32,000 nucleotides of DNA from Candidatus Methanoperedens sp. (GTDB taxonomy: Archaea > Halobacteriota > Methanosarcinia > Methanosarcinales > Methanoperedenaceae): the NCBI GenBank assembly GCA_027460535.1, contig JAPZAR010000007.1:90001-122000 (forward strand), read 5' to 3'. The position numbers were made by a program, and so were the translations under genes. Below the pieces are notes generated by a model, which was given only the letters and a program-made list of their open reading frames with translations, was not told where the DNA came from and searched no databases. Position 1 is the first letter of the stretch. Each line of letters opens with the position of its first letter. This document shows positions 5,160-27,351 of the stretch, piece by piece.

Positions 5160-5214
5160 AATCTACTTAGATTAAGCTAAAAGTATATAAGTTCTCAAGA
5201 TGCGGCGTGGTTAT

Positions 5215-5664
5215 TTATTCGTATATCCAGGTTTCATCGATACGCGAGTATCCCGCTATCTCTGATTCCCTGAAATGAATACTAATCTCCCTTTCTGCGG
5301 ATTCCGGTGAATCACTGGCATGTACAACATTGCGTCCGGTATCAAGGGCAAGATCTCCCCTGATTGTTCCTGTTACCGCATTCAGTGGATTTGTAGCTCC
5401 GTTTATAGAGCGCATAACAGAGACTGCATTTCTTCCCTCAACCACCATTGAGACAGAGGGACCTGATGTTATGAAATCGATCAGAGACTTAAAAAAAGGT
5501 TTCTGGGAATGCTCAGCATAATGTTTCTTTGCTGATTCGATCGAAATCGAATTCATCCTCAAAGCGACTATTTTAAGTCCTCTTTTCTCGATCCGGCCTA
5601 TTACTTCACCCACAAGCCCTCGCTGTACGCCGTCGGGCTTGACCATAACATAGGTGCGCTCCAA
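5215..5664 (-). CDS. ndk: Nucleoside diphosphate kinase
   Basis: The N-terminus (M)[16 protein letters not shown] and the NVVHASDS active-site region are present. The conserved N-terminus requires the TTG start at 5664-5662, which is preceded by AGGTGA. Confidence 0.95.
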
Positions 5665-5673
5665 TTTTTCACC

Positions 5674-5868
5674 TTACTTAGCGGTTTTACCGCGGGCCTT
5701 GCGTCCCGCCTCGGTCCATCTTACCTTACGCGGTAATCTGCCAAGGTTAGAATTTCCCTGGCATTTGGATGAACAGAAATAGAACACAGTCCCATCTTTC
5801 TTAGCATAGAGTTTGCCTGTTCCGGGTTCTATACCATCCCCACAGAACGAGCATTTCCTTCTTTCCAT
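5674..5868 (-). CDS. rpl24e: 50S ribosomal protein L24e
   Basis: 64 aa. Zinc-ribbon sequence CSFCG...FCSSKC and a basic tail are present, within the conserved operon context. Confidence 0.9.
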
Positions 5869-5872
5869 GACT

Positions 5873-6088
5873 TCACCTTGACATTAATTTCTTTGCTTCT
5901 CTGGAGGTCTCAAGCAACATCAGGATATCGCCATTTTTTACGGGCCCTATCACATTTCGTGTGATTATCCTTCCCTTATCCCTTCCGTCGAGTATCCTGC
6001 ACTGTATCTGCATTGCTTCACCATGCATTCCTGTCTTGCCGATAACTTCTATTACTTCAGCAGGATAGCCTGTTTCTTCATCTGCCAT
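5873..6088 (-). CDS. rps28e: 30S ribosomal protein S28e
   Basis: 71 aa. Contains [42 protein letters not shown], typical of S28e. Confidence 0.9.
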
Positions 6089-6553: not shown

Positions 6554-7450
6554 TTAATAACTTGCTTCGCTTAACACCTTCAACAGGTTGGGCGTGGCAA
6601 TCCTGACGATCGTGTAATTGCCGCTGCTGGTTATGTTGTACTGCGTAAAACCGCTCTGCGTACCATTGATCTTTAACTGGTTGAGTTTTTTCATGGTGCT
6701 TGCATTAATATTCAGGTAGGCAACCGTTCTCTCATAACTGCCATCGCTTTCTTTTATGCCCATGTAATACTGTTTTGCGAAACTTACGTTGGAACTGATC
6801 GTCTGGAATGACGCAGGTTCCACTTTGCTCAGCAGCCCAGCATATTGATCATAGGCATTAGCGGTCTTATTGAGGCTGTTAATGATCTCATACACATATA
6901 CGGCCGTTCCCTGTGGCGCATAGACTATTGGGGTTCCCAACATGTTTATGCATGGTATTGGGTTTAGCTTCGTGCCACCGCAGCTTGTGTCTTGCCTTTG
7001 AAGAACGGGGGGATAAGTATTTGGTAATTCGATATAGTCAAAATCATTTATCTCTGGATATATTGTCGAGAGGAGCAGGAATGATTTGTTTGTTCCATCG
7101 AAAAGATTGGTATAATAAATCCTGGTCGTATTTGATTTATACAGGGAATCCACTTCACCGATGAGCGGCAAATCCTGACGAACCCACTGGATCATCATGG
7201 GTGTCATGCTTTCAAGGTCTGCAAAACTTGCCGATTCTGCCCCGGGAGGTGTCAGGTTCAGAGCATCCGAAATGGAATAGAATGGCTGGTTGACTGTCCA
7301 TAATTCAGGATTGAACTTATTCGAAACAGCCTGATTAGTTGTCTGCGTATCCTCAGTCCTGGGGCTTGTAATAACATAAGCCACAGGCACAATTATCATG
7401 ATCAGAATCATTAATGCTGCGAGTAATTTGTATACATCCTGCCTTTTCAT
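6554..7450 (-). CDS. Membrane-anchored extracellular protein, function unknown
   Basis: 298 aa. One N-terminal hydrophobic helix (LLAALMILIMIIVPVAYVI) is followed by a domain with many N-x-S/T sequons. I recognise no family motif. Confidence 0.7.
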   Translation of the reverse strand: MKRQDVYKLLAALMILIMIIVPVAYVITSPRTEDTQTTNQAVSNKFNPELWTVNQPFYSISDALNLTPPGAESASFADLESMTPMMIQWVRQDLPLIGEVDSLYKSNTTRIYYTNLFDGTNKSFLLLSTIYPEINDFDYIELPNTYPPVLQRQDTSCGGTKLNPIPCINMLGTPIVYAPQGTAVYVYEIINSLNKTANAYDQYAGLLSKVEPASFQTISSNVSFAKQYYMGIKESDGSYERTVAYLNINASTMKKLNQLKINGTQSGFTQYNITSSGNYTIVRIATPNLLKVLSEASY

Positions 7451-11784: not shown

Positions 11785-11891
11785 GCTCCGATAGTGTAGC
11801 AGGCCAATCATTCTGGCCTTTCAAGTTTTATGCGCGCACAACGCTGAAATAAAGACAGCCAGAGACTCGGGTTCAAATCCCGATCGGAGCA
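11785..11891 (+). tRNA. tRNA-Glu(UUC) with a 33-nt intron at the canonical 37/38 position; CCA not encoded
   Basis: Acceptor GCTCCGA (11785-11791) pairs with TCGGAGC (11884-11890), with discriminator A at 11891. The GTGTAG...CCAATCAT D-arm is typical of archaeal tRNA-Glu. Anticodon stem CTGGC/GCCAG encloses the loop CTTTCA|intron 11824-11856|A. The T-arm is TCGGGTTCAAATCCCGA. Confidence 0.85.
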
Positions 11892-12085
11892 CTTAAATTC
11901 TTTTGATGCTCCATTCCATTGGATGTTCTTTTGTTAAAAATCGTAGAATAGAAGAGAGCACGGGTCAGGGGGGACGGATTATGTCATTACGAATTAGGAT
12001 AATTTCTCCTTGTCCTTTTTCCCATGTAATTCCCTCACAGTGACCTTAGCAATTACTTGTCCGCCATGAGGGGCGCAGTCCAGAA

Positions 12086-15000
12086 TTAGCTTACAATTAT
12101 TCTTCCTTTGGGTTTTACAACTATTACTATACTGCCCATCACACTATTGTTTCCATTGCTGCCGACGGCTTTTATGAGCGCCTGGCCAGCGGTGACACTT
12201 ACGAAATTAGCAAAACCTGAGCCGCTCACTGTCATGCCATCTAAAGGATTTTGTAAGTTGTTGAAATACCCCAGATCAGTATATAAAGTCACATTTGCAA
12301 TTGCCGGATTGCCATCGACATATGTCGCAGTTACCATTATATTGGATGGCTCACCGGTAAACACCACAGGCGGATTTGCACTTAGCTGTATATCACCCAA
12401 TGCTATGTAATTCACGCCTGCGCCGCCACCACCAAGATTTGCACCTCCAGACCATATTATGTTCACAGTAATAAACGTTCCATTCAGATCTGTATAACTG
12501 ATATTTGAAGTGGGAAGAATGAGAGGTACATAACCTGCGCCTTGCACGCCTAGCTGGTACCATACACCCCATTTTTCACCCGGATTCAGGCTTGGCAGTA
12601 CCCAGCTGAGTGTGCTTACATTTCCAACAGTTGTCACATTCGGCTCCGCATTTCCCTTTGCAGGATAGGTAGGGACTGTGAAGTTTGTGCCAATATTTGT
12701 TGTAGCATTGCTACTGTTGGATATGTAGGTTGCAGTTGCCAGCGATAGACCGGTCACATAGTTATGCGGTATCTGTAAATTCAGTGTCGGACCATGCGCT
12801 GAGAAATTTGTTATATTTGATGCAATACCTCGGAATATATTCTGTAGCACGCTGGTATTTGGTGCAAAATAGTATTGTCCACCTGTAATATTGGCAATAT
12901 CAGAGAGTCCGGGATCTACTTCAGATTCGTTAGTGCCAAAACCAATCGTATATATCGTAGTGTTATGCTTTCTGGCACTCTGCGCCTCAAGAAGCATGGA
13001 ATGGTATCCGGCATTGTCAAGGCCATCTGTCATAAGCACAATTGCGGAGTTGCCCGAGACATTGGAGAATTCGTTGTTTGCCTGATATAACCCCTCGTCT
13101 ATGGCTGTAAGTCCAACTGATGTTATTGTGTCTACAGAGTTATTAAGATGGTCTAATGTCGGATAGGAATCATTGAGAGTGGACGTAACGCGTCCTGAGT
13201 ATTGCTTCCAGTTCAAATTCTGGCTTGCGGCAATATTAAATGATGTTTCAGAGGATATATTAACTCCATCAACTTCTATATTGTAATCCGTTCCAGAATA
13301 AATTGGAGCACTTAATGTTTCAAATCCAGAATGGTTGTGGGATTGGTTGATCAGAGTTGCACTCTGGAATAAATACAGTGCAAGTTTATCATTAGCATCT
13401 GGCCATGTAAGATTGAAGGTATAGTTGGTTAGTGTTTCAACGGTATCCGTTTGAAAACCTGATACATGATATGATGCATCTGAGGTAAATCTTATTTTAA
13501 TAGTATCTCCTTTTACCCATGGACTCCAGACGTCACTAATATTAGCTCCAGGCCATGTACCATAGTTAGTATAACTGGCTATCAGATTATTTTTTCCATC
13601 TGAAATATTTACAAAATCATGATCCCCCTCTACGTCAATTTTTGTAAAATGCACTCGAATTTGACTTGCGCCAGGAACTGTTTTATTCCAGGTTAAATTT
13701 TGATTATCTGGATAGTTACCTGAACTTGGATATTTCACAGCCCAGGATGTGCTCATGGTGTTGCCGCCTGTGAAATACCCCACCCACGTGCTACCGTTGC
13801 GGATGTAGCTGGTCTGATTGCCACTATTGGTAATATTGGGTGGATTAGGGTCGCTACTGTATGCAGCAAGACCTACTCTATCTCCTCTAATTGGATCAAA
13901 ACTTGAGATAAATGAATGGGAAGCTAATTTGACAGCACTTTTCTTATCGATATAGGTAGTTATATTAAATGCGCCTGATCCATTGACTGATATGATCCAG
14001 TTTCCCGTTAGAATCGTGTTGTTGTTGTCCTCCACCGGGTCATATACCCCCGGGACTGGTGCAATCCAGACATATTTACCGATGCCTGAATTGTAATAAC
14101 CGGTACGATTGACAAAACCCGACTCGATAGATTTGGGATATTTTGTGCCATTTGGAGATGTTAGAGTAAAATTCAAATTCACATTATCAATAAAAACTTT
14201 GAAATCCGTAACAATGTCGTTGAGCGTTATGGTATCTGTCCAATTTACTGTGCTGTTTGCAATTCCACTGGCCGCATAACTATATGATGTGAATCCATCC
14301 GTTCCGTATTGCCTTGTAGTGATATCAAAATCACTTATTTGCTGGGCGATATTATTATAGATGTCCTGTAACTGGCCGGGCGTTGCCGCATAATAGTAGC
14401 TGCCCGGGCTGGCTATCGCCGACATAGTTGCGTTATCGGCATCTCTGCCGAAACCAATAGTGTATATCTTGATAAAAGAATTATTATTGATGAATGTGGT
14501 CTTGGCCGTATTTGCTTCTTTTAATGCATCGTATGTTGGACTTGAACAGGAAGGGTAACTGTCATCGCAATAGTTCCCTTTAAGATCGTATGTTGGTAAC
14601 CCGTCTGATAGCAGGATTATGTATGGACGGGCGCCCGGACGAGTATTGTTCTTAAGATAGTTCGCTGCATTCCTTATCGCCAGCGCTGTCGGTGTCCCGC
14701 CGCTTGCACTTTGGGCATCTATTTTTTGATTTATGCTGGTCATGTCATATGTTAAATCGTATAGTTTAGTAGTAGTTCCGCTAAATGTGAGCAGCCCGAC
14801 CCTGTCATTGCTTATCATATTACTATTGAATTGTTTTGCTGCTGTTTTAACGGCATCTATTTTTTTAGTCGTATTGACAATAGGATCATCCATGCTTCCC
14901 GAAGTATCGCTTACGAGCATGATATCCAATGGAGTTCCTGCATAATAATCAGGATCCATGCTTCCTGATGTGTCAAGTACAAGCATGGCATTTGCGGCAG

Positions 15001-16771
15001 GTCGTGAAAAAGGCAGCTCGCCCTCGACAGAGATAATAGTGGTAACATTGACATTACCGCCCGAGTTTATGCTTGTAGGCTCAAAAGTTATGTTAACGCT
15101 CAGGAATGGCACATCTTTTATGCCTATATTCACCGAAAAGTTTACAGTGCCATTGGACGCGATAATAGTCGCATTTCCAACTAGGGTTTTGCTTGTAAAA
15201 ACAGCCTGAATCATACCATTTGCATCAGTTGTTGAATTGATTATATCCGTGGCGTTAATACCTGCAACCGTGAGGTTTCCAAGGGCTGGGATGGTGTTGT
15301 TAAGTGTTACATTTATGCCCGGAATGGAGTGCCCCCATTCATCAAGTGATGTAAGAATAATAGAAGCGTTATGGTTGCCTTTAATATTCTGGGAGAGCAA
15401 GGTATCCGGGGAAGAATAAATAACAATTCTATTAAGGTCTCCTTCAACAAAACTCAAGTTGATACTACCGGTTATATTGGTGGGGCCGGTCTCATCCTCA
15501 TAACGGGCTGTGACAGTTACAATTTCTACATAGGGTGTTGGTCCTATAAGAGTTACAGCAGCCCCATTATTATTCAAGGGTATTATAACGGAACCTAATG
15601 AAGTGGTGAAAAGTACCTGTTTTGTAATTGGAACGCTCCTTGGAAATACGGGATTGAGGAACTCATCAACGACCTGTGCTGTGAGCCTGTATGCATCTTT
15701 GTTATTGGCATGAACCGCATCAGGAGTATGGCTAAGAAGAATTTCTGTAGCATCATCTGCAATTCCTTCGATGGTAATAAATGTATTAATGTTCCCGACT
15801 GTTATATTTATGAGGTTTTCGCCCGCACGCTTATCTGCTCTAAAAACGGTCGAAGTAAACCCATTTAGATTGGTGATATTGATTTCGGGAGTGAGATTTA
15901 GTGAATTATATTCAATTGGGCTATTATATTTTGTAGCAGGGGGTGGCGTAGCATTGAAGATCACAGCAGCATCTCCTATGGGGTTGTCATACATATCCCA
16001 TGCACCCACAGTTATTATTGAAGATGTATTCACCGTGCATTCCTTATAATAATCCACTGATATGTAGGAAAGCGCAGCCGGCGTGAATGTTATATTGAAA
16101 GTGTTTGTTGTGTTCCCCACCTTTGCTGTAATGGTAATATTCCCAGCTACCGTGGAATTGATGTTCAGAAGTATGCTTGAGGAGTTAGATGTGGAATTTA
16201 CAAGGGTCACACTGCTCCGGTCAGCAACAAGGTGCGTCAGTGCAAAGGATGCCCTTGTAATGTTCACCTGGTTTATTGTTTCTCCAAGAATGTCAAATAT
16301 CTGAATATTAAGTGTCATATTCGCAGTAGAATTTGTGTTATTGTATTGGTCGTATGCAGATAGATTCACTACTGTGGCATTGCCTACTACAAGCGGGTTT
16401 TGAGTGACATTAACAGCTATGAAAGCGGGCTCTCCTGGAAAGAAAGTCACATTTGTGGTATTATACACAGCTCCAACACTTGCGTTTATAGTAGCTACAC
16501 CGGAAATAGTTGAATTAATCCTTGTCGTGGCCATACCTGACGAATCGGTATATGCCGATGTCGTGCCTAGACTGCCGAGAGTTGTGGTGAAGTTGATAAG
16601 GGTGTTGTCCTGGGGAGTGGAGTTATCCAGGACTTGTACAGATATGTTCACACTCTCATCCACTGTTGTCTGGGAAGGGTAAGATGAGATTTCCACATCT
16701 ACGCCTGCAGCCAATCCAGTGAGCATTATTGTTAAAGTGAGCGTGAAAAAGAGATTTTTAATAGTATGCAT
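12086..16771 (-). CDS. Giant secreted surface adhesin: Sec signal, about six Ig-like (Big_1/invasin-like) repeats, nested vWA domains, CUB-like and other beta-sandwich inserts, C-terminal Ig-like domain
   Basis: A single 4.7-kb ORF. The track start is TTG at 16777, but the likely start is ATG at 16771, preceded by GAGGGT. The signal sequence is LTLTIMLTGLAAG. Two MIDAS DxSGS motifs (LVLDTSGSMD and LVSDTSGSMDD) are present, along with SGGTPTALAI, ILLSDG, GLTAIDEGL, VLMTDG and IYTIGFG. N-x-S/T sequons are extremely dense. Confidence 0.9.
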   Translation of the reverse strand: MHTIKNLFFTLTLTIMLTGLAAGVDVEISSYPSQTTVDESVNISVQVLDNSTPQDNTLINFTTTLGSLGTTSAYTDSSGMATTRINSTISGVATINASVGAVYNTTNVTFFPGEPAFIAVNVTQNPLVVGNATVVNLSAYDQYNNTNSTANMTLNIQIFDILGETINQVNITRASFALTHLVADRSSVTLVNSTSNSSSILLNINSTVAGNITITAKVGNTTNTFNITFTPAALSYISVDYYKECTVNTSSIITVGAWDMYDNPIGDAAVIFNATPPPATKYNSPIEYNSLNLTPEINITNLNGFTSTVFRADKRAGENLINITVGNINTFITIEGIADDATEILLSHTPDAVHANNKDAYRLTAQVVDEFLNPVFPRSVPITKQVLFTTSLGSVIIPLNNNGAAVTLIGPTPYVEIVTVTARYEDETGPTNITGSINLSFVEGDLNRIVIYSSPDTLLSQNIKGNHNASIILTSLDEWGHSIPGINVTLNNTIPALGNLTVAGINATDIINSTTDANGMIQAVFTSKTLVGNATIIASNGTVNFSVNIGIKDVPFLSVNITFEPTSINSGGNVNVTTIISVEGELPFSRPAANAMLVLDTSGSMDPDYYAGTPLDIMLVSDTSGSMDDPIVNTTKKIDAVKTAAKQFNSNMISNDRVGLLTFSGTTTKLYDLTYDMTSINQKIDAQSASGGTPTALAIRNAANYLKNNTRPGARPYIILLSDGLPTYDLKGNYCDDSYPSCSSPTYDALKEANTAKTTFINNNSFIKIYTIGFGRDADNATMSAIASPGSYYYAATPGQLQDIYNNIAQQISDFDITTRQYGTDGFTSYSYAASGIANSTVNWTDTITLNDIVTDFKVFIDNVNLNFTLTSPNGTKYPKSIESGFVNRTGYYNSGIGKYVWIAPVPGVYDPVEDNNNTILTGNWIISVNGSGAFNITTYIDKKSAVKLASHSFISSFDPIRGDRVGLAAYSSDPNPPNITNSGNQTSYIRNGSTWVGYFTGGNTMSTSWAVKYPSSGNYPDNQNLTWNKTVPGASQIRVHFTKIDVEGDHDFVNISDGKNNLIASYTNYGTWPGANISDVWSPWVKGDTIKIRFTSDASYHVSGFQTDTVETLTNYTFNLTWPDANDKLALYLFQSATLINQSHNHSGFETLSAPIYSGTDYNIEVDGVNISSETSFNIAASQNLNWKQYSGRVTSTLNDSYPTLDHLNNSVDTITSVGLTAIDEGLYQANNEFSNVSGNSAIVLMTDGLDNAGYHSMLLEAQSARKHNTTIYTIGFGTNESEVDPGLSDIANITGGQYYFAPNTSVLQNIFRGIASNITNFSAHGPTLNLQIPHNYVTGLSLATATYISNSSNATTNIGTNFTVPTYPAKGNAEPNVTTVGNVSTLSWVLPSLNPGEKWGVWYQLGVQGAGYVPLILPTSNISYTDLNGTFITVNIIWSGGANLGGGGAGVNYIALGDIQLSANPPVVFTGEPSNIMVTATYVDGNPAIANVTLYTDLGYFNNLQNPLDGMTVSGSGFANFVSVTAGQALIKAVGSNGNNSVMGSIVIVVKPKGRIIVS

Positions 16772-16922
16772 GGACAATACCCTCTATCTGGGATTTATTT
16801 TAACACATAGTCTCCTTCTTTTACTGTTACCTTGTGCTCATAAATACTTTTGCATGCTCATAATAAGCATTATCATAAATAATCATATTGATAATATCAA
16901 ACCAAACCTAGGTTTATTTTAA

Positions 16923-17654
16923 TCAGGTAATATCTACGTCTACCAAGTGCCGTCCTACGACTAGCATGGTGTTGTTTCGGCTTGCTATAAGGCTAGAGTC
17001 TGTGGAATTTGTTGTGGTAAAACCTATGTTTTCAAGATAGCTTCTCCATTCTGATGCATAAGTACTGTTGATTTTAAGCGTTACATTCACCAAGCTTGAG
17101 GTTTTATTAATAATGCTTTCGTTGTATCTCAAGTTGAGGGTGACAATACCATTGCCGCTTACTACTGAATCTCCTTGTATCAAAACAACGCCTATGGTGG
17201 TTATATTGGTTCCGTTCATCGAGCTCGTATAAATGCGTGGACTTGAAACAATTACACTTCCATCAGGGTATCGTTTCCATACGCCTCCATTTTCATAGGT
17301 TAGAAACTTATCATTTCTCTGGTACTCTATCTCTCCGCTAACCAGGTGTAGAGTTTCATCAGCATACTCTATAGTGATGTTTGAATTCTCTGTTGCCAAG
17401 AGGGCTGCTCCTTGGAGTTGAATTTGCAGGTTTTTCACTGGTATATGATCAAACGCCACCATTTTAATGTCACTTTGGAGGAGTATGAAGCTCTGCTCTG
17501 TACTTTCGAATATACTCGAATCCATACTTGATTGAAGCATAGGGTAGCCTGCTACATATATCAGGCTCATGGAAAGTATCACTATTGCAAATATGTAGAC
17601 GAATCCTATGGTTTCAACCACGGCGGCTTCCTTTTTGTCATCTTCTTGAATCAT
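16923..17654 (-). CDS. Pilin-like protein 5 (archaeal type IV pilin-like N-terminus)
   Basis: 243 aa. The N-terminus MIQEDDKKEAAVVETIGFVYIFAIVILSMSLIYV has a charged leader followed by a hydrophobic helix. It overlaps the upstream gene by 17 nt. Confidence 0.75.
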   Translation of the reverse strand: MIQEDDKKEAAVVETIGFVYIFAIVILSMSLIYVAGYPMLQSSMDSSIFESTEQSFILLQSDIKMVAFDHIPVKNLQIQLQGAALLATENSNITIEYADETLHLVSGEIEYQRNDKFLTYENGGVWKRYPDGSVIVSSPRIYTSSMNGTNITTIGVVLIQGDSVVSGNGIVTLNLRYNESIINKTSSLVNVTLKINSTYASEWRSYLENIGFTTTNSTDSSLIASRNNTMLVVGRHLVDVDIT

Positions 17655-18081
17655 AGCTTATCCAGTGAGTTGAATTGCTGCTATATGCAGTGCCGTTTAT
17701 AAGCATTGAACTTGCAATACCGTTTATTGTAACACTAACACTTTTCTCTGTTGTTGTAGAGTTGACATCAATAATCTCGTCTGTTCCCGCCAAATCGGCG
17801 TTAATTATGTATGTTTCTCTTCCGATCTCTGACGGGATTTTATATTCTGTTTCAATATATCCGTTCTCTGGAGCTATCAGATACATGTCCGTAATTGTGG
17901 AACTTATCAGATTGCCTATGCCCCTGTATTGTTCTTTCACCACAATGTTGCTTGGACCTTTTATCAATATATCATTCGCATTTAGAAGAACTATTACGCT
18001 AAAAACCATGAATATTCCAGAAAACAGGATGTATGCCAAAGTCATAGAAACAGCATCTTCGCCTTTGGTAAATGATTTCAT
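17638..18081 (-). CDS. Pilin-like protein 4
   Basis: 147 aa. The N-terminus is MKSFTKGEDAVSMTLAYILFSGIFMVFSVIVLL, of the xxAVS type. Its start overlaps the upstream stop in an ATGA. Confidence 0.75.
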   Translation of the reverse strand: MKSFTKGEDAVSMTLAYILFSGIFMVFSVIVLLNANDILIKGPSNIVVKEQYRGIGNLISSTITDMYLIAPENGYIETEYKIPSEIGRETYIINADLAGTDEIIDVNSTTTEKSVSVTINGIASSMLINGTAYSSNSTHWISYDSRR

Positions 18082-18530
18082 TGTTTCATCTCTATTATTT
18101 CAGGCTCTGAAGCGTAACGTGTAATACCGTCATTGTAGCTTATGTTCAACCATATTAGGTCGATATTGTGGTTGGAATTGAATACGGCTTTTGATAAGGT
18201 GATGTCTACTGTTTCACCGTGGATGGCGTAAATCATGCTCACTTGTGCATTGTAACTGCTGAGAAGCACAGTGAAGTTGGAGAGTACAGTCTCATTGCCT
18301 GTATGGTTAAGCTCCCATGCAAGTTGTGCAAGACTTTTCGCACTTTCTTGTGTTTGCGCTGTGATCTCTCTTATCGTTTCTTTGGGGAATTCAAGGGCCG
18401 CGTAGGATGAGTAGTAGTCTGTTACCGCAGCCTGGTTGATAAGCACTGCAACCAGAACCAGCGATAGGGATGTTGCGAGACCCGAAAGCGCTATCCATTG
18501 ACCATCAGTATCATCAATTACACTCGCCAT
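18078..18530 (-). CDS. Pilin-like protein 3
   Basis: 150 aa. The N-terminus is MASVIDDTDG|QWIALSGLATSLSLVLVAVLI. It overlaps the upstream gene by 13 nt. Confidence 0.7.
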   Translation of the reverse strand: MASVIDDTDGQWIALSGLATSLSLVLVAVLINQAAVTDYYSSYAALEFPKETIREITAQTQESAKSLAQLAWELNHTGNETVLSNFTVLLSSYNAQVSMIYAIHGETVDITLSKAVFNSNHNIDLIWLNISYNDGITRYASEPEIIEMKQ

Positions 18531-19030
18531 GCTATAAGTCTCACCTCTACCACTTTTAGATCATCTGATGATACGTTCCATGCACCGCCAGCCTGTATCA
18601 CCGTAGAGTTGTATAGCGTTACAAGGCGGGTGGTAACCACGGAATTCTCAACAGGTGCACCGTGTATTATAGCATGCTTTACTGCAAGGGTACCGTTTTC
18701 GGCGTATGCAAAATCAATATTGTAAATAACACCATTTAGCTGTTTGTCTATCTCAGTGTCGAGTGCCAGGAGGCTGTTGCTTTGCGGCGTTGCTTCTGTC
18801 ATATTCCACCCTGCCACGAGTTCTGTCAAGTTGAACTGGAGGGCTGTTCCTGGCGCCATGTCAAGCATCGCCAGGGTATCCGCTGCAATCTGTTTAAGCT
18901 GTACATCCATGGCAAGCCCGCTTTGAGGAGTGACGATAACTGAACTTTTAGCTATAAGCGCTACTGTTAAAACCATCAGAGATGCGGCAAAAAATCCTTC
19001 AATAGTGTGAATCTGAGCTTCCTCGTTCAT
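18518..19030 (-). CDS. Pilin-like protein 2
   Basis: The track start is GTG at 19036. The ATG at 19030 overlaps the upstream stop (ATGA) and is preceded by GGAGGTG. The N-terminus is MNEEA|QIHTIEGFFAASLMVLTVALIA. Confidence 0.7.
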   Translation of the reverse strand: MNEEAQIHTIEGFFAASLMVLTVALIAKSSVIVTPQSGLAMDVQLKQIAADTLAMLDMAPGTALQFNLTELVAGWNMTEATPQSNSLLALDTEIDKQLNGVIYNIDFAYAENGTLAVKHAIIHGAPVENSVVTTRLVTLYNSTVIQAGGAWNVSSDDLKVVEVRLIAWRV

Positions 19031-19998
19031 TTCCACACCTCCAGCACGAGAGACGCCGGCTCATATAGCGGTTCGACTTTGGCTGTATATTCGATATATG
19101 GAGGCCCTGTTCGAATGAAGCTCATTTGAGCGAAGTTGAGCTCTAACTGATAAGTAGTATTGAATGGAAACAAGGTGTGGTTGAAGATTAAGCGTAACGT
19201 ATCTGTATGGTTCAATGGATCTGAGTAGGTAAAAAAATCACTGATATTTGTTCTCTTGTACGCGATGTAATCAGAGGTTATGTTGAGGTCGCTGCCATTC
19301 AATTTTGCCCTTTTGAAACTGGCAGTAATAGGATCTGCTATATTAAAATCTATTATCTGTATTATCACATCCTCACTCTGGGGTCCACTGATGTTAATAA
19401 GTGCGTTGTCATCCGCTATCGGTGGTTCATTAGTTAATTCATCAAATCTGATGCTTGCTATATTGCCTGTTTCCACCAGTACCTGTCTTGTTATTTTGAT
19501 TATGTCCTGTGATACGGGGGGTTCCTCTCCAAAAGATATAACGGAACCGTTCATGACCATAATATTGCCACTTTGTTGAAGGGTTATGTTGTAGCCGTAA
19601 TCCACTTGAGAGCCGCTTATTTTGTCGTATAAGCCAAGTTTTCTTGTGAGAACGATTTCATTCAATCTTAAAGCATGCTGTATTTTTGTCTTATTCAGCA
19701 TTCTTGGTGTCTCTGTCTGCCTTGTGCCGGGTGTTATATCCGCAGCCAGGCCTATTCTGCTTATATTTTCCGTGTGCATCTCCCAGTCCGTACCGTTTAG
19801 AGTACTATTTTCCCACCACCCAGGGTCTTCTGAGAGTATGTTGGCTGTTCGATAGGCAACTGAGTTTAGACTTCCTTCTTCTGACACTGATATAAAAAGA
19901 CTCGGAATGAACTGTATTACGAACGCAAATGTGAGAAGAAATAGACTAATCCCCATTAGAAAGTCAACACTAATTTGCCCTTCATCAGTCAAAATCAT
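19027..19998 (-). CDS. Pilin-like protein 1 (class III signal peptide, QxSxxF type)
   Basis: 323 aa. The N-terminus MILTDEG|QISVDFLMGISLFLLTFAFVIQFI resembles the G|Q-x-S-x-E/D-F motif of methanococcal EppA-type prepilins. It is the first gene of the five-gene overlapping set. Confidence 0.75.
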   Translation of the reverse strand: MILTDEGQISVDFLMGISLFLLTFAFVIQFIPSLFISVSEEGSLNSVAYRTANILSEDPGWWENSTLNGTDWEMHTENISRIGLAADITPGTRQTETPRMLNKTKIQHALRLNEIVLTRKLGLYDKISGSQVDYGYNITLQQSGNIMVMNGSVISFGEEPPVSQDIIKITRQVLVETGNIASIRFDELTNEPPIADDNALINISGPQSEDVIIQIIDFNIADPITASFKRAKLNGSDLNITSDYIAYKRTNISDFFTYSDPLNHTDTLRLIFNHTLFPFNTTYQLELNFAQMSFIRTGPPYIEYTAKVEPLYEPASLVLEVWK

Positions 19999-20026
19999 GA
20001 TTATTATTATGATAATAAGATTCTGT

Positions 20027-20037
20027 TATATATAAAA
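20027..20037 (-). promoter_or_regulatory. Candidate TATA box for the pilin-like operon
   Basis: The minus strand reads TTTTATATATA, centred about 34 nt upstream of the ATG at 19998. Confidence 0.35.
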
Positions 20038-20105
20038 CTATTCATCGTTTTTGCATTACAATTTTTTAAAAAAGTTCATCCAGTAGTTCATTTTATCATA
20101 GATGT

Positions 20106-20312
20106 TCATACTAAATGGGGGAAAATACCCTTTTTCATTATTACGCGCCCACAGGCCCATTGACGTTTTGTACGCCTGATTGTGTGAAACCCCAAAGCAT
20201 CTCTCATAATAAAGAGCTTTTCAGAGCACGTCAAGAATTTGCCCCACTTCGTATCCTTGCTTATTATGTTATATACGAAAACCTCTTTAGCATTGTTGTG
20301 GGTAATTAGAAA
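20106..20312 (-). pseudogene. Start-less 68-codon open frame; possible recombinase/transposase remnant
   Basis: The minus-strand frame reads FLITHNNAKEVFVYNIISKDTKWGKFLTCSEKLFIMRDALGFHTIRRTKRQWACGRVIMKKGIFPHLV*. It has no upstream start and is bounded by stop codons. Adjacent frames also contain protein-like stretches. Confidence 0.2.
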
Positions 20313-20626
20313 TCAGCTTTTCTTTCATCTCTCGAAAAGCATTGATTACGTACTGATTCCTATCTTAAGAAAAAATGATTCAATATAGGTGTGGATAAAT
20401 GGGTAGGTTTGGTGGTGATATCTGGATGTGATACATAAATTAACGTCTCGTTCACTTATTTCTCGCATTTGACTATCTTGATCGCTTAAATGAGTTTCAT
20501 TCAGATTTTAATAATCTTGATGCACAAACGTCAATTTAATGTTGATAACTTTTGTGACAACTTGAACTATCCTTTTGTGTACCCGATAGATGATTTAAGA
20601 ATAATAATTTCTGGAGGCAAAGCAAT

Positions 20627-21181
20627 ATGATGGAAAAAATCAAGGATGGAAATATTAGAGCCTGGAACAGCGGAAGATTTAACAGGCTAAGTAAAAATGA
20701 AAGTGCAACGTCGACTCTTATGAGAATCATTATTGTGGCAGTAATCGCAATACTGTCAACCGTGATTGCTACAGTTGCATTCGGATTTAGTATCACAGAA
20801 TTAAAAGTACCTACTGCGAGTATAACCGTAGCAAACATTCCCGGTACCATAGGAATCGCTGACATGAAAATAGTACACAGAGGTGGAGATAGACTAGCAG
20901 GTGGGGACTGGAAGATATCCATTGTTCCTGTCGGACATCCACCCGCCTATATCGCTTCGAGTCCGGGCAGCGATTTTGTGGAAGGAAACCAGATAATAAC
21001 CGCATATGTAACAGATTTTCCTGGAGCCACTTATAATGTGACCAATACTGGCGTTAATATCATTAGTGGCGATAGTCCTGCTGCGAGATTATCATTTGGC
21101 CAGGAATACGATGTCAAAATTATGGTCTACCCCTCCAAAACTATGGTACTTGACACAGTTCTACCCAAGTTTAAAAGATAG
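20627..21181 (+). CDS. Archaeal type IV pilin, DUF1628 (Pilin_N)-like
   Basis: 184 aa. GGAGG lies 8 nt upstream. The N-terminal helix is ATSTLMRIIIVAVIAILSTVIATVAFGF, followed by the family-typical MKIVHRGGDRLAGGDWKISIV block. Confidence 0.8.
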   Translation: MMEKIKDGNIRAWNSGRFNRLSKNESATSTLMRIIIVAVIAILSTVIATVAFGFSITELKVPTASITVANIPGTIGIADMKIVHRGGDRLAGGDWKISIVPVGHPPAYIASSPGSDFVEGNQIITAYVTDFPGATYNVTNTGVNIISGDSPAARLSFGQEYDVKIMVYPSKTMVLDTVLPKFKR

Positions 21182-21257
21182 CTTTATAATTTAATCAAAA
21201 GATTTACTTCTAAAGCTTGGGATTTAGGTATTTCCTTCGGGAATTGTTGTCACCAAC

Positions 21258-21265
21258 TTTTTTTT
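21258..21265. terminator. T8/A-run tract, candidate bidirectional oligo-T terminator
   Basis: The sequence CTTTTTTTTAAAAAATTAAAAAAT lies 77 nt after the pilin stop codon. It reads as oligo-T on both strands. Confidence 0.3.
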
Positions 21266-21396
21266 AAAAAATTAAAAAATAATAATCAATTTGGCATAGT
21301 ATTAAACTACTTAACCAACCATTTCTTTCAGAGACAGGCATTTTTTTCCCGTTAATCCCTGCTCTTCCAGATAACGATCAGTTGTTAAGAGCATCT

Positions 21397-21516
21397 TCAA
21401 AGCAACCTACCATCGTATCCAGTAAAACCTTGAGAAGTCGCTACAGCTTCTAAGCGCCCCATTGCCTTTGTAAAACCACTATCGTGGCCGTGAATATCAT
21501 CCACTTTTTGAGTCAT
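21397..21516 (-). CDS. 39-codon ORF, probably the 5' fragment of a decayed gene
   Basis: GGAGGTG sits immediately upstream of the ATG at 21516. Translation is MTQKVDDIHGHDSGFTKAMGRLEAVATSQGFTGYDGRLL*. Protein-like sequence continues in shifted frames down to about 21300. Confidence 0.25.
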   Translation of the reverse strand: MTQKVDDIHGHDSGFTKAMGRLEAVATSQGFTGYDGRLL

Positions 21517-21562
21517 CACCTCCTAAATATGAGTTATAGGAGTATATGCCTTTCTTGTAGGC

Positions 21563-21579
21563 TCCCGATCGGAGTACTT
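21563..21579 (+). repeat. Distal copy of the tRNA-Glu 3'-end block (attR-like)
   Basis: TCCCGATCGGAGTACTT matches 11878-11894 at 16 of 17 positions, in the same orientation. Confidence 0.5.
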
Positions 21580-21606
21580 CTTTACCAAATTCAAAAAGGT
21601 TGGAAG

Positions 21607-21789
21607 TCACTTCTTTACACGTACCCTGGATATGATCCTTTTTTCGGGGACTTTATACGCCCACCTGCTGAAACCGTTAATATACAATATTCTTTCGCGG
21701 CGTTTCTTTTCGATGAATTGAACATCACCCTTTTCAATTTCACCCGATTCAAGTTTAAATTTGACGATGTCACCTATAGAATATTTCAT
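21607..21789 (-). CDS. Small basic protein, function unknown (SH3/KOW-like by eye)
   Basis: The track start is GTG at 21804. The ATG at 21789 has GGAGG 8 nt upstream. Translation begins MKYSIGDIVKFKLESGEIEKGDVQFIEKK... Confidence 0.6.
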   Translation of the reverse strand: MKYSIGDIVKFKLESGEIEKGDVQFIEKKRRERILYINGFSRWAYKVPEKRIISRVRVKK

Positions 21790-21990
21790 ACATTCAACCT
21801 CCACGTTTTTCTTTGTTTGTTCAATTTTCCGTTTCAGTTCGAATGTTGCTAATAATTATGATTAGTATCATAATCATTAGTATCATTGTGACCATTTGTA
21901 TACATATCCAAGTACATAAAAGTATCGATTTTATCGAGCACACATTTTTTTGCAATAGATTTATTAGACTCTCATACATTTCGTACATGC

Positions 21991-24510: not shown

Positions 24511-24864
24511 TTAGGCCACACATTCCCCGATGATTTTTGTGGCACGAAGAGTTTCAAGCGAAGTGAGCTGTTGATTTGCCTCTGCTTCCGTAATTGTCAC
24601 AAGTACGGTTGATCTTGAGGAAGGAGCTATGAGGATCCTGTTTTTCCTGAAATAAAAGATCGACTCCTTCAATCCTTCCCGGTTCATCTCTTCAAGCACA
24701 TCTCTGATATGTTTCTCCAGCCAGAACATGGTCGCCAAAAGATGCTCTCTGTATCCGGGGGTCCTGAGAGTTATTGGCACTCCATCTATCCTGTAGAGAA
24801 TACATGCCTCTACCCCTTCGATTTCATAAAGCTCATCGAGGGTCTCCTCAAGTCCTTTTGCCAT
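24511..24864 (-). CDS. Roadblock/LC7 (MglB-like) domain protein
   Basis: Contains LEETLDELYEIEGVEACILYRIDGVPI...ILIAPSSRSTVLVTITEAEAN. The start is ambiguous (TTG 24891, ATG 24882 or ATG 24864). Every option overlaps the 3' end of the upstream ATPase gene. Confidence 0.75.
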   Translation of the reverse strand: MAKGLEETLDELYEIEGVEACILYRIDGVPITLRTPGYREHLLATMFWLEKHIRDVLEEMNREGLKESIFYFRKNRILIAPSSRSTVLVTITEAEANQQLTSLETLRATKIIGECVA

Positions 24865-25741
24865 GCCCCTTCTTCTCTTCATTAATAACAAGTTTGAGGA
24901 TCTGTGATGGGTCTTCTTCCCGCGTCCAATTTTTCTTTAAAGTTTCAATCCTTGATGACAGGATTTTCCCTAAATTACCCATGGATTTTGTTTCTTTTAT
25001 AAACTCTTTAAATTCGGCATCGAATTTGTTTTTCGGCTTTATTCGATATATCTGTTTTTCCGACGCCTGAATTACAATACCAAGCCCGGTCTCTATAGAA
25101 TACGGATATAGTCCGTCGCCGTGCTTGGAACCCCTGTGTTTCATTATCCTCAATGTCCTGTCATACATTTCGCCGAAACCCAGGTTTTGAAGGTATATTA
25201 CCGTATCGGCTAAATACAGAGGCATTGCTGAACCTTCGGGTATGTGATTTCCATCCACGGGTTCTTCAAGGACGATCACGGCGGTTCCGAGCCTGCGTAA
25301 TTCCTGGAAAATGGTACTAAGGGATTTTCTTTTCTCCTTTTCTGAATAGAATGTTGGGTAGGTCAGCGGATCTACCACAATTTTCATATTGTCGCAGGCC
25401 ATTGAATTCTGGACCATTTCTGTAAAGTCAAGAGAAGGGAAGGTGAGGTCCTCTCCGAATACATGAATAATCTTCAAATTCCCATTTTTGATATGATCCT
25501 CGATTTCCCCCCATCCCATATCGATGGAATCGCGTATTATTTGTTCCTGTGACATCTCAAAAGAAACATAAATTACCTTTTCACCTCGATTAAGACCGAA
25601 AAGGGAATATTGCAGAGCGAAGGTTGTTTTTCCAACACCTGTGCCTCCCCGGATTATATTGATGGTGTTCTTTCGAAAACCTCCTCCTATGAGATCATCA
25701 AGACCATAAATGCCTGTGGGGACTCGACCCGGTTTTGCCAT
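24848..25741 (-). CDS. KaiC-like / RecA-superfamily ATPase (single domain) with a roughly 60-aa C-terminal extension
   Basis: 297 aa. Contains VPTGIYGLDDLIGGGF, the Walker A motif GGTGVGKTTFALQ, and LRIMKHRGSKH. Confidence 0.85.
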   Translation of the reverse strand: MAKPGRVPTGIYGLDDLIGGGFRKNTINIIRGGTGVGKTTFALQYSLFGLNRGEKVIYVSFEMSQEQIIRDSIDMGWGEIEDHIKNGNLKIIHVFGEDLTFPSLDFTEMVQNSMACDNMKIVVDPLTYPTFYSEKEKRKSLSTIFQELRRLGTAVIVLEEPVDGNHIPEGSAMPLYLADTVIYLQNLGFGEMYDRTLRIMKHRGSKHGDGLYPYSIETGLGIVIQASEKQIYRIKPKNKFDAEFKEFIKETKSMGNLGKILSSRIETLKKNWTREEDPSQILKLVINEEKKGHGKRT

Positions 25742-25840: not shown

Positions 25841-26074
25841 TTATTTCTCCTGCGTGCTTTCCCCCTGTAACTCTAATGGCTCTATCCCCAGTTCATCGTT
25901 TTCTTCTATTAATTTCTCGACTTTCTGCCGGGCGTTTGTCAGCAATGTATTGCATTCCTTGACAAGCTTTATTCCATTCTCAAAGATCAACAGGCTTTCA
26001 TCAAGGGAAAGCTGGCCATTTTCAAGTTTTTCCACTATGTTCTCAAGTTCCAGAAGTTTCTCTTCAAAACTCAT
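25841..26074 (-). CDS. xseB: Exodeoxyribonuclease VII small subunit
   Basis: Begins MSFEEKLLELENIVEKLENGQLSLDESLLIFENGIKLVKEC. The ATG at 26074 overlaps the xseA stop in an ATGA; the longest ORF would start at 26086. Confidence 0.85.
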   Translation of the reverse strand: MSFEEKLLELENIVEKLENGQLSLDESLLIFENGIKLVKECNTLLTNARQKVEKLIEENDELGIEPLELQGESTQEK

Positions 26075-27288
26075 TTCCATTTGCATACCTCTTTGTCATC
26101 TACATTGCATTTAATTTTTCCATCATTTACGATAATCTGGAGTTCGTCCATTTTTTGCACATCATCGATACTCCTGACCAGAGACTTATCCGGGAGCCTC
26201 AATGTTATGCTGTACCCCCTTGAGAGTGTATTGAGCGGACTAACCGCATCAAGTTTACCGGCATAGGCATTGAATAAGGATTTTTTAATTTCCAGTATCC
26301 TCTTGATATCTATGATCTGTTGCCGGGTTAATTTATCGATACACTGCTCATGATCTGCAATGCATTCAAGGAATGCATGCGGATCGACGCTTTTTGTTAA
26401 TTCCAGAACATGGGATATCTTATCACCAATATTGTTTCTCTGGCATTTGATCAACCTTTCATTCAGTCTGAAAATCGTGTTGAACAGCTCCAACCGGTCA
26501 GGAACCACGATCTCTGCAGCAGCAGATGGCGTCGGGGCACGCGCATCCGCCACAAAATCGGCAATTGTGTAATCGGTCTCATGCCCCACGGCCGATATTA
26601 TGGGTATTCTTGAATTGAATATTGCCCTCGCCACTATTTCCTCATTGAAGGCCCAGAGATCTTCTATCGAACCACCCCCCCTTCCCAATACAATAACGTC
26701 CACATCAGTCCTGTTCAGCATGGAAATCGATCTAACGATGCTGTGCGCAGCATATTCTCCCTGCACGATCGTAGGCACAAATAATATGTTCAAGGGGTAC
26801 CGGCGATTTACAACGGTCAGGATGTCATGAAGGACCGCACCTGTGGGGGATGTCGCCACACCTATCTTTTTCGGGAATTTAGGCAGAGTTTTTTTATGCT
26901 CAGGAGAGAACAGCCCTTCCATCGCCAGTTTGTTCTTTAACATTTCATAGGCTTTATAAAGCTCTCCGATACCATCGGGCCGCATCGCTCTTGCTTTCAA
27001 CTGGTACTGACCTTTCTGTTCATATACGTCCAGATCCCCCAGGACGATCACCTTCATTCCATGCTGAGGTTCGAACCTCAGGTTTTGACCATGCCATTTG
27101 AACATGACGCACTGCAATGAGCTATTTTTGTCCTTCAGGGTAAAATAGCGATGGCCTGAACTGTGATTCTTAAAATTCGATACCTCTCCTCGCAGCCAGA
27201 CATCATTGAATTTACCGTCTGTAAGGATGCTTTTTATTGCCAGTGTGAATTCATGGACTGTATAGATGCCCTTCTCTTGAAAAGACAT
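26071..27288 (-). CDS. xseA: Exodeoxyribonuclease VII large subunit
   Basis: An N-terminal OB fold (VWLRGEVSNFKNHSSGHRYFTLKD) and a catalytic core (GRGGGSIEDLWAFNEE, SAVGHETD) are present. The track start is TTG at 27306; the likely start is ATG at 27288 (MSFQEKGIYTV). Confidence 0.9.
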   Translation of the reverse strand: MSFQEKGIYTVHEFTLAIKSILTDGKFNDVWLRGEVSNFKNHSSGHRYFTLKDKNSSLQCVMFKWHGQNLRFEPQHGMKVIVLGDLDVYEQKGQYQLKARAMRPDGIGELYKAYEMLKNKLAMEGLFSPEHKKTLPKFPKKIGVATSPTGAVLHDILTVVNRRYPLNILFVPTIVQGEYAAHSIVRSISMLNRTDVDVIVLGRGGGSIEDLWAFNEEIVARAIFNSRIPIISAVGHETDYTIADFVADARAPTPSAAAEIVVPDRLELFNTIFRLNERLIKCQRNNIGDKISHVLELTKSVDPHAFLECIADHEQCIDKLTRQQIIDIKRILEIKKSLFNAYAGKLDAVSPLNTLSRGYSITLRLPDKSLVRSIDDVQKMDELQIIVNDGKIKCNVDDKEVCKWK

Positions 27289-27351
27289 AGTCGTTAATTC
27301 TATCAAGGCTGTATTTGACTTGCGGTAGCAGAGTGAAACTAATATTTCAGA

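Follow-up and report, generated by a model that had tools for sequence, protein, structure and literature searches.

The question raised by this locus of Candidatus Methanoperedens sp. (assembly GCA_027460535.1, contig JAPZAR010000007.1, positions 90,001 to 122,000) is whether a run of small pilin-like genes and the giant adhesin gene beside them make up one surface device. The window, meaning the whole 32,000-nucleotide stretch that was analysed, carries five short genes on the minus strand (g1 to g5, hereafter the cassette), followed by the gene for a large protein with vWA domains (the adhesin). An earlier note on this DNA, made from its letters alone, had described a pilus tip module without assembly machinery. 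The reading favoured here, with somewhat better than even confidence, is a module for surface adhesion that has a type IV pilus-like (type IV filament, TFF) set of pilins as its base and in which the adhesin would be displayed by the pilin complex.

The gene layout stands as first described. Seven open reading frames (ORFs) are confirmed, on the minus strand at 19027-19998, 18518-19036, 18078-18530, 17638-18081, 16923-17654, and 12086-16777, and on the plus strand at 20627-21181. The overlaps of 4, 13, 4, and 17 nt between consecutive cassette genes are borne out if g2 starts at ATG 19030, whose Met is kept in most orthologues; mechanically called starts give 10, 13, 4, and 17 nt. The gap between g5 and the adhesin gene is 145 nt, as claimed.

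The five proteins are type IV pilin-like. This part of the earlier note is borne out by class III signal motifs, the DUF7287, DUF7288, and DUF7289 families, profile matches for g3 and g4, the predicted lollipop shape of g5, and a haloarchaeal cassette of the same kind that is linked to pilB-pilC. The first protein, g1 (323 aa, 19027-19998), has a FlaFind motif, a transmembrane segment, and an N-terminal DUF7287 match (PF23958, 60.7 bits, cut-off 27). It is followed by g2 (172 aa, 18518-19036, start GTG 19036 or ATG 19030), which matches DUF7288 (PF23959, 78.1 bits) and has the signal EEA↓QIHTIEG, where the arrow marks the predicted cleavage site. No Pfam match is found for g3 (150 aa, 18078-18530, signal TDG↓QWIALSG), a DUF7261-type homologue by hhalign: its orthologues align with DUF7261-type gene-3 proteins at a probability of 96.4% (E 1.4e-9). 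For g4 (147 aa, 17638-18081, signal EDA↓VSMTLAY), the Pfam score of 19.3 bits is below the 27.6 cut-off, and the DUF7266-type assignment comes from hhalign, in which its orthologues align over the full length with DUF7266-type gene-4 proteins (probability 98.2%, E 3e-14). The last protein, g5 (243 aa, 16923-17654, signal KEA↓AVVETIGF), matches DUF7289 (PF23960, 95.1 bits) and is an arCOG02911-type "minor pilin."

Each protein has a single hydrophobic segment, which is N-terminal and follows a leader of 7-10 residues. The class III signals read in the earlier note stand up: the FlaFind pattern [KRDE][GA][ALIFQMVED][ILMVTAS] is matched by four of the five (g1 EG↓QI, g2 EA↓QI, g4 DA↓VS, and g5 EA↓AV), and g3 (DG↓QW) departs from it at the last position (+2) alone. 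Family-specific N-terminal motifs are kept in 10-14 orthologues per gene, namely GQIS.DFLLG for g1 (10 orthologues), AQ.HT.EG for g2, GQWI.LSG for g3, (D/E)(A/G)VS for g4, and AAVSE.GF for g5. In all five families, G or A at -1, a charged residue at -2, and the very short leader are conserved. The signal of g1, MILTDEG↓QISVDFLMG, resembles DUF361-type signals with Q at +1, a residue without which the pilin-specific peptidase EppA of Methanococcus maripaludis does not process its substrates (PMC4390842). The cassette also combines two kinds of class III cleavage motif, both conserved across orthologues: G/A↓Q in g1-g3, and A↓V or A↓A in g4-g5, the latter like that of Pilin_N/PibD-type proteins.

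Further properties agree with a pilin-like surface protein set. The AlphaFold2 model of g5, the sole protein modelled, was built from a 27-sequence alignment and reached a predicted local distance difference test (pLDDT) score of 88.7; it predicts a helix over residues 5-68 and then an all-beta domain of 13 strands, which is the lollipop layout of a pilin. Some members of the DUF7289 family also match Pilin_N, weakly. Per 100 aa, the cassette has 3.3 N-X-S/T sequons, the adhesin 5.1, and the cytoplasmic neighbours 0.36; this density, 9-14 times that of the neighbours, fits the expectation for archaeal surface proteins.

The cassette belongs to a widespread family. Its five-gene order recurs at 40-87% identity in more than 25 independent loci, a conservation far beyond chance; loci with this order are L001-L011, L013, L016-L026, and L050-L052. 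The order is invariant in all related loci fetched, which come from Methanoperedenaceae, GoM-Arc1, Methanomethylovorans, Methanolobus, and metagenome contigs. All five positions match a PilB4-type cassette, g1, g2, and g5 above Pfam gathering scores and g3 and g4 through hhalign. By these matches, the cassette is the form, here called "type-1," that the archaeal clade 2 / system 2 PilB4-type set takes in Methanosarcinales (DUF7287-7288-7261-like-7266-like-7289). Makarova, Koonin and Albers (2016; PMC4858521) described this "PilB4-type" set, the second variant of their euryarchaeal clade-2 system, as arCOG06117-04652-07777/06552-03926-02911 (their Fig. 4B) and predicted that arCOG03926 is the major pilin and arCOG02911 a minor one. 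In their Table S4, the Archaeoglobus sets read arCOG06117-04652-07777-03926-02911(x2), and the cassette matches them in gene order and gene sizes. The position of g4 corresponds to arCOG03926. Equivalence to arCOG06117/04652/07777/03926/02911 is thus suggested by order, size, and annotation rather than by arCOG profiles.

A divergent "type-2" cassette occurs in Methanolobus and Methanococcoides, and in Methanolobus it stands in tandem with type 1. Its order is a short DUF7287 gene, DUF7288, a gene 3 of ~285 aa, DUF7266, DUF7289, and a sixth gene for a DUF7289+DUF7308 protein. Two Methanolobus loci (L001, Methanolobus sp. ZRKC2; L010, M. psychrophilus R15) have two cassettes each, with a third in L001, in a region near Mre11/Rad50-like genes. 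Between the type-1 cassette and a convergent vWA giant of 1,839-2,071 aa, both loci encode a 296-aa SdrD_B / PEF-CTERM (archaeosortase-type) protein. In Methanococcoides methylutens (CP199767), the type-2 cassette has as its immediate upstream neighbour (L011:5357-7465, plus strand) the gene for a protein of 702 aa that carries an archaellum FlaD/E domain (PF04659), which may point to a connection of ArlD/E-like proteins with this pilin set.

The DUF7289 profile finds 2,488 clusters at 50% identity among 1.84 billion representatives, with the shared N-terminus x(A/G)VSE.(I/V)G. A DUF7289 scan of genome contigs gave seven loci. More distant context came from a representative search and a profile built from distant members, which led to haloarchaeal and other contigs. 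A literature search on DUF7266, DUF7287, DUF7288, and DUF7289 found nothing. In Haloferax volcanii, pilB4-pilC4 is expressed, and its product has never been visualised or given a function (PMC4371748; 2025 and 2026 preprints).

The window holds no assembly machinery, as the earlier note had stated: none of its ORFs has a T2SSE, T2SSF, or peptidase A24 match (Pfam). A genomic link between motor and cassette is seen in a relative, Natronomonas salina (L050, CP058335), where T2SSE (with a PilB3_N-like match), T2SSF, DUF7287, DUF7288, a 102-aa gene, DUF7266, and DUF7289 lie in direct succession. The pilB of this locus has no called gene and consists of two overlapping ORFs within L050:3552-6061 (plus strand), 3552-5603 with the T2SSE match and 5381-6061 with none; the split may be a frameshift or a pseudogene. 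The cassette adjoins TadC and an ATPase in Archaeoglobus profundus and stands without both in A. fulgidus (Table S4 of PMC4858521), and ATPase/TadC modules serve pilin sets encoded in trans (Makarova et al., 2016; PMC4858521). Methanolobus psychrophilus, which carries an orthologous type-1 cassette and adhesin, has clade-2 ATPases elsewhere in its genome (PMC4858521, Table S2).

The adhesin gene (12086-16777, minus strand, start probably ATG 16771) encodes a protein of 1,563 aa that is predicted, from Pfam matches and sequence features, to be Sec-exported. It begins with a Sec-type signal whose AxA-like site is kept in orthologues, and no hydrophobic segment is found beyond this signal, in keeping with the earlier description of a Sec-type protein that lacks a C-terminal anchor. 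The protein has 80 N-X-S/T sequons. Pfam matches outline an Ig-like Big_1/Invasin_D3 stalk (residues 40-580), a complete inner vWA domain (618-808), and a CUB-like domain (1013-1109). An outer vWA domain is split over three segments (residues ~596-612, 944-1000, and 1196-1325), which were recognised from a partial VWA match at 1206-1304 and an in-silico splice test. Residues 591-616, 944-1000, and 1196-1335 were joined and compared with Pfam VWA, and the spliced sequence gave one full-length match (profile positions 3-172 of 174, 57.3 bits). Omitting the first segment reduced the match to profile positions 23-172 (46.9 bits), and the last segment alone matched 53-172 (40.8 bits). This restoration of a full VWA match indicates that the head is a vWA domain nested in another vWA domain, with a further CUB-containing insertion. 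Both vWA domains carry motifs of putative metal sites of the metal ion-dependent adhesion site (MIDAS) type, DTSGS at 624-628 followed by GGTPT and LLSDG in the inner domain, and DTSGS at 602-606 followed by GLTAID and LMTDG in the outer one. The twin DxSxS motifs, 22 residues apart, are kept in orthologues. A single-sequence AlphaFold2 prediction of residues 585-1335 had a pLDDT of 34, and the only PDB entries matched by the adhesin sequence were generic vWA and intimin fragments.

The C-terminal 375 residues are the best-conserved part of the adhesin among orthologues. They comprise an Ig-like region that ends in VKPKGRIIVS (12089-12118, minus strand). An end of the form (V/I)(K/R)P(K/R)GxIx(V/I/L)S-COOH is found in 17 orthologues, with K or N in two, and the orthologues measure 1,485-2,188 aa where complete. 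This C-terminal motif matches no known sorting signal and may be a docking strand. Anchoring by an archaeosortase (PGF/PEF-CTERM) or a sortase (LPXTG) was considered and rejected, given the lack of a C-terminal transmembrane helix, the VKPKGRIIVS end, and the lack of a PEF-CTERM match. In one relative, the adhesin is annotated as three consecutive genes of 1,173, 230, and 179 aa (L002:10870-15828), the outcome of either frameshifts/pseudogenisation or assembly errors.

Adhesin and cassette are co-conserved in both directions. The adhesin adjoins eight of the 11 type-1 cassette loci (the window, L001-L006, and L010). Conversely, a metagenome search with the adhesin C-terminal alignment, followed by tblastn, found the cassette adjacent in 13 of the 16 adhesin loci of at least 4 kb, in either orientation; some of these positives come from related samples and hence are not independent, and in each of the three negatives (L012, L027, and L035) the contig stops on one side of the locus. 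The orientation of the adhesin relative to the cassette varies between co-directional and convergent, and the genes flanking the module differ in every relative. Adjacency is therefore kept by something other than a common transcript or a common descent of the neighbourhood.

The strongest argument for the adhesin as cargo of the pilin complex, an indirect one, comes from the gene that it seems to replace. In related cassettes, the product of the sixth gene joins a DUF7289 pilin to a C-terminal module that varies and is in most cases DUF7305 or DUF7308. Type-1 cassettes have no such sixth fusion pilin, and the adhesin stands in its place. On a 48-kb ENA contig, a gene between two PilB4-type cassettes (L051:3376-5664, minus strand) encodes a 762-aa DUF7289-vWA fusion (DUF7289 84 bits, VWA 50 bits). 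Aligned with the two vWA domains of the adhesin, this protein is 27-32% identical to them. This fusion favours a PilY1-like display of the adhesin by the pilin complex and falls short of proof.

A mechanism that fits these observations would run as follows. The proteins g1-g5 would insert into the membrane, a PibD/EppA-type prepilin peptidase would cleave the 7-10-residue leader, and a PilB ATPase and PilC platform encoded elsewhere in the genome would extract and assemble them. Given the tight translational coupling of g1-g5, the probable outcome is a priming or tip complex with equimolar subunits, or a short pilus. The adhesin would be exported separately via the Sec pathway and heavily N-glycosylated. 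Since it occupies the genomic place of a sixth "modular pilin," it is expected to dock non-covalently on the pilin complex, possibly by its invariant C-terminal domain and motif, and to be displayed there. It would thus present two MIDAS-type vWA sites on an Ig-like stalk, functionally like PilY1 on PilVWX/FimU.

Several points weigh against this reading. Display of the adhesin by the pilins is argued from genes, that is, from genomic and sequence comparison. In three of the 11 cassette loci (L007-L009), the cassette stands alone among housekeeping genes with no adjacent adhesin; it therefore does not need one, and the idea of pilins and adhesin as an obligatory module has to be given up. The adhesin gene runs convergently to the cassette, and is not co-transcribed with it, in Methanolobus and in numerous metagenome loci. 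A tblastn search with Natronomonas PilB and PilC over 52 loci (576 kb) found nothing in the window or the other 51 loci apart from the source locus L050, which makes the Methanosarcinales cassette consistently unlinked from its presumed motor. Neither PilB and PilC nor the peptidase turned up in the window or in 56 further loci, with the PilB/PilC of L050 as the sole exception. A Foldseek comparison of the g5 model with the PDB gave no match below E 0.01 (TM <= 0.17), and thus no solved pilin that is alike. Membership of the adhesin in two known groups was also rejected: it has no match to the PilY1/PilC beta-propeller (PF05567; Pfam, E <= 0.1), and its Sec-type N-terminus with an AxA site, instead of a class III pilin N-terminus, excludes a modular pilin of the TadG or Streptococcus sanguinis PilB type. 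Lastly, the position-4 family is the major pilin in the proposal of Makarova et al. (2016), which would make the cassette a complete pilin set rather than a tip complex. The terms "tip" and "all five minor pilins" of the earlier note accordingly go beyond what was observed.

From this last point comes the alternative that survives best, itself judged doubtful. It holds that the cassette encodes a complete small pilus with g4 (arCOG03926-type) as its major subunit, and that the adhesin is independent, separately anchored or S-layer-associated, the two being neighbours through a common adhesion/aggregation regulon. The predicted role of arCOG03926 speaks for a complete pilus; the adhesin's own Sec signal, the 145-nt gap upstream of its gene, its convergent orientation in many loci, and the cassettes without an adjacent adhesin speak for its independence. 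However, a regulon would not require adjacency to survive changes of orientation and context. The overlap and coupling of the genes suggest that their products are made in equal amounts, an unusual ratio for a major pilin. The position-4 protein, moreover, measures 959 aa in A. fulgidus (AF0753-type) and 790 aa in A. veneficus (Makarova et al., 2016, Table S4), odd sizes for a major subunit that suggest instead that this position is able to carry large modules. An independent adhesin would also be at odds with the lack of a recognisable anchor (no C-terminal transmembrane segment, no PGF/PEF-CTERM) and with the fusion of a vWA domain to a cassette pilin in L051.

Less probable again, and on the whole unlikely, is a non-filamentous pseudopilus or anchor: a short membrane-rooted stalk through the S-layer that holds the adhesin, like the Sulfolobus bindosome or the pseudopilus of the type II secretion system, with no extended pilus. 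Five different pilin-like genes under equimolar coupling, and the lack of a conserved major pilin gene standing by itself in their vicinity, would suit such a stalk. So would data from H. volcanii, in which pilB4-pilC4 is expressed, yet a pilB3-C3 deletion strain has no surface pili (PMC4371748); a 2026 preprint reports that pilBC3 alone forms visible pili in this species and proposes TFF machineries functionalised with binding proteins. Nevertheless, PilA-family major pilins are often encoded elsewhere in the genome (PMC4858521), and a pseudopilus and a short pilus tip complex differ only in degree. The least likely alternative, a very improbable one, makes g1-g5 uncleaved, N-terminally anchored membrane proteins that serve the biogenesis, glycosylation, or S-layer insertion of large surface proteins independently of any TFF; it could draw on the lack of linked machinery in any Methanosarcinales locus, the g3 motif outside the FlaFind pattern, and the missing PDB pilin match of g5, but it fails to account for the conserved -1 and -2 residues and very short leaders of all five families, the cassettes directly after pilB-pilC in L050 and in Archaeoglobus, and the resemblance of the N-terminus to Pilin_N.

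The favoured reading, a pilin complex that would display the adhesin, can be set beside four known systems. With the clade 2 / system 2 PilB4-type set, the cassette shares gene order, similar sizes, Pfam families or profile homology at five positions, and class III signals, and both may be encoded apart from ATPase and TadC. The cassette differs in having a Sec-type vWA giant instead of the sixth DUF7289-fusion pilin, and the Methanosarcinales loci examined are never linked to pilB-pilC. Its g1 also differs, with an extra C-terminal region of ~160 aa; the whole C-terminal extension of g1, ~260 aa, exceeds that of type-2 and haloarchaeal cassettes (155-212 aa).

The parallel drawn in the earlier note to PilY1 with FimU-PilVWX of bacterial type IVa pili is one of function alone. 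In both cases, a co-encoded pilin-like set lies beside a large Sec-exported, non-pilin vWA adhesin; the machinery is encoded elsewhere in the bacterial case and presumably so here. The traits that the adhesin has in common with PilY1 (Sec signal, vWA domain, and a gene adjoining pilin-like genes) amount to a functional analogy alone. Unlike the bacterial system, the pilins of the window have no sequence relationship to FimU-PilVWX, the adhesin shows no PilY1/PilC beta-propeller match and combines Ig-like repeats and a CUB-like domain with a nested pair of vWA domains, and the archaeal host has an S-layer and lacks a secretin. Modular vWA pilins, such as TadG of Tad systems and PilB of S. sanguinis, likewise place a vWA adhesive module on a type IV filament, and the DUF7289-vWA protein of L051 has exactly this design; the adhesin of the window, in contrast, is a non-pilin with a Sec signal whose attachment would need non-covalent docking. 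The Epd pili of M. maripaludis (EpdA-E, EppA) are methanogen pili that need several minor pilins, and g1-g3 have Q at +1 as EppA substrates do. However, Epd pili belong to clade 1, consist of other pilin families, and have genes linked to the machinery and a dedicated peptidase.

The divergent gene at 20627-21181 (plus strand) is an accessory neighbour. It encodes a 184-aa protein with a Pilin_N match (PF07790, 32.6 bits, cut-off 25.2), and the earlier identification of a divergent pilin with an HRGGD motif is correct in this respect; its inclusion in the module is not upheld. The gene is adjacent to the module only in same-strain contigs and in the closest relative, L003, and for this reason it was rejected as a component and is not counted in the conserved module. 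The protein has a 26-aa leader, its SA↓TS site lies outside the FlaFind pattern, and it could be a local candidate for the major pilin. On the other side of the divergence, a TATA-box-like element, TTTATATA, was read from the sequence at 20029-20036 (minus strand), ~34 nt upstream of the g1 ATG, and TTTATATA is a candidate archaeal promoter of the cassette.

The module is bracketed by a direct repeat whose left copy covers the 3' end of a tRNA gene. A tRNA-Glu(UUC) with a 33-nt intron lies at 11785-11892 (plus strand; ARAGORN with -i; Rfam RF00005, 50.9 bits), 194 nt from the adhesin stop codon, and is overlooked by a default ARAGORN scan. The left repeat copy (17 nt, TCCCGATCGGAGCACTT, 11878-11894, plus strand) consists of the last 15 nt of the tRNA-Glu and two flanking bases. 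The right copy, TCCCGATCGGAGTACTT (21563-21579, plus strand), is identical to it at 16 of 17 positions, for which the chance expectation is 0.01 matches per window. Exactly the adhesin gene, the cassette, and the Pilin_N gene lie between the two copies, in a 9.7-kb segment whose GC content is 0.409, against 0.463 and 0.444 in the flanks. Together, the repeats and the low GC content look like an attachment-site-like (att-like) footprint of integration at a tRNA gene, and this remains a lead. No integrase is encoded inside the 9.7-kb segment. An empty tRNA-Glu site was not found, as all contigs with an identical TrpG protein carry the adhesin. Among the loci compared, no relative shares the window's flanks, and no comparable tRNA-linked repeats surround the modules of other loci; the tRNAs near L005, L006, L008, and L009 have the wrong geometry.

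A bolder interpretation of this arrangement is held only tentatively and is not thought probable. The module would be a portable "adhesion cartridge" of 9.7 kb with att-like ends at tRNA-Glu, which would equip the resident PilB/PilC with a new tip complex and with a nested-vWA adhesin that is PilY1-like and itself no pilin (docking via its C-terminal V(K/R)P(K/R)GxIx(V/I)S). If true, it would represent the first archaeal non-pilin tip adhesin and a motor-independent horizontal exchange of pilus specificity in aggregate-growing anaerobic methane oxidisers.

The neighbouring genes are housekeeping genes, encoding TrpD, TrpF, TrpE, TrpG, an aIF5B-type IF-2, NDK, L7Ae, a radical-SAM enzyme, an aminotransferase, RNase HII, and CdhA. 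Among named organisms, the module genes have their nearest relatives in metagenome-assembled genomes of Candidatus Methanoperedens, and proteins identical to those of the window also occur on NCBI assembly GCA_027460495.1. Two long AT-rich stretches (20000-20626 and 21182-21990, GC content ~0.36) have no supported genes. The second of them covers a GTG-initiated ORF of 122 aa (21484-21852) that has no Pfam match and contains the right-hand repeat copy. Between the L7Ae gene and trpD, a 298-aa ORF (6554-7450, minus strand) likewise has no Pfam match and is annotated as a gene on same-strain contigs. A homologue of the exonuclease VII large subunit (XseA; 26071-27306, minus strand) adjoins a gene for a bifunctional-nuclease-domain protein in this archaeal context. 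A KaiC-family ATPase gene (24848-25741, minus strand), with a small overlapping ORF (24511-24891, minus strand), lies 3.7 kb from the module and beyond the repeat-bounded segment; KaiC ATPases often accompany type IV pilus loci (Makarova et al.).

As to novelty, experimental characterisation of the cassette family is lacking, as the earlier note implied, but the cassette type was described computationally in 2016 (PMC4858521), and the novelty is smaller than suggested. The cassette is a member of a predicted family, experimentally uncharacterised, and no new kind of system. What is new here is the adhesin family of the Methanosarcinales, the invariant C-terminus and the nested vWA head of its members, the two-way linkage counts, the L051 fusion, and the separation of cassette and motor. 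The value of these observations lies in a defined set of targets, consisting of five small proteins, an adhesin with a conserved C-terminal motif, and a fusion variant in a relative, rather than in a new principle. The PilB4-type / system 2 cassette is widespread in Euryarchaeota, as its 2,488 DUF7289 clusters attest, and is expressed in Haloferax without an assigned structure or function. For the role of this family, the comparison offers the hypothesis that the cassette displays interchangeable adhesive modules, which come either as part of a sixth pilin, by fusion, or as a vWA giant of its own that is exported by Sec. Methanoperedens-like methane oxidisers live in aggregates and on mineral or partner surfaces, and the module is a candidate for the device by which they attach.

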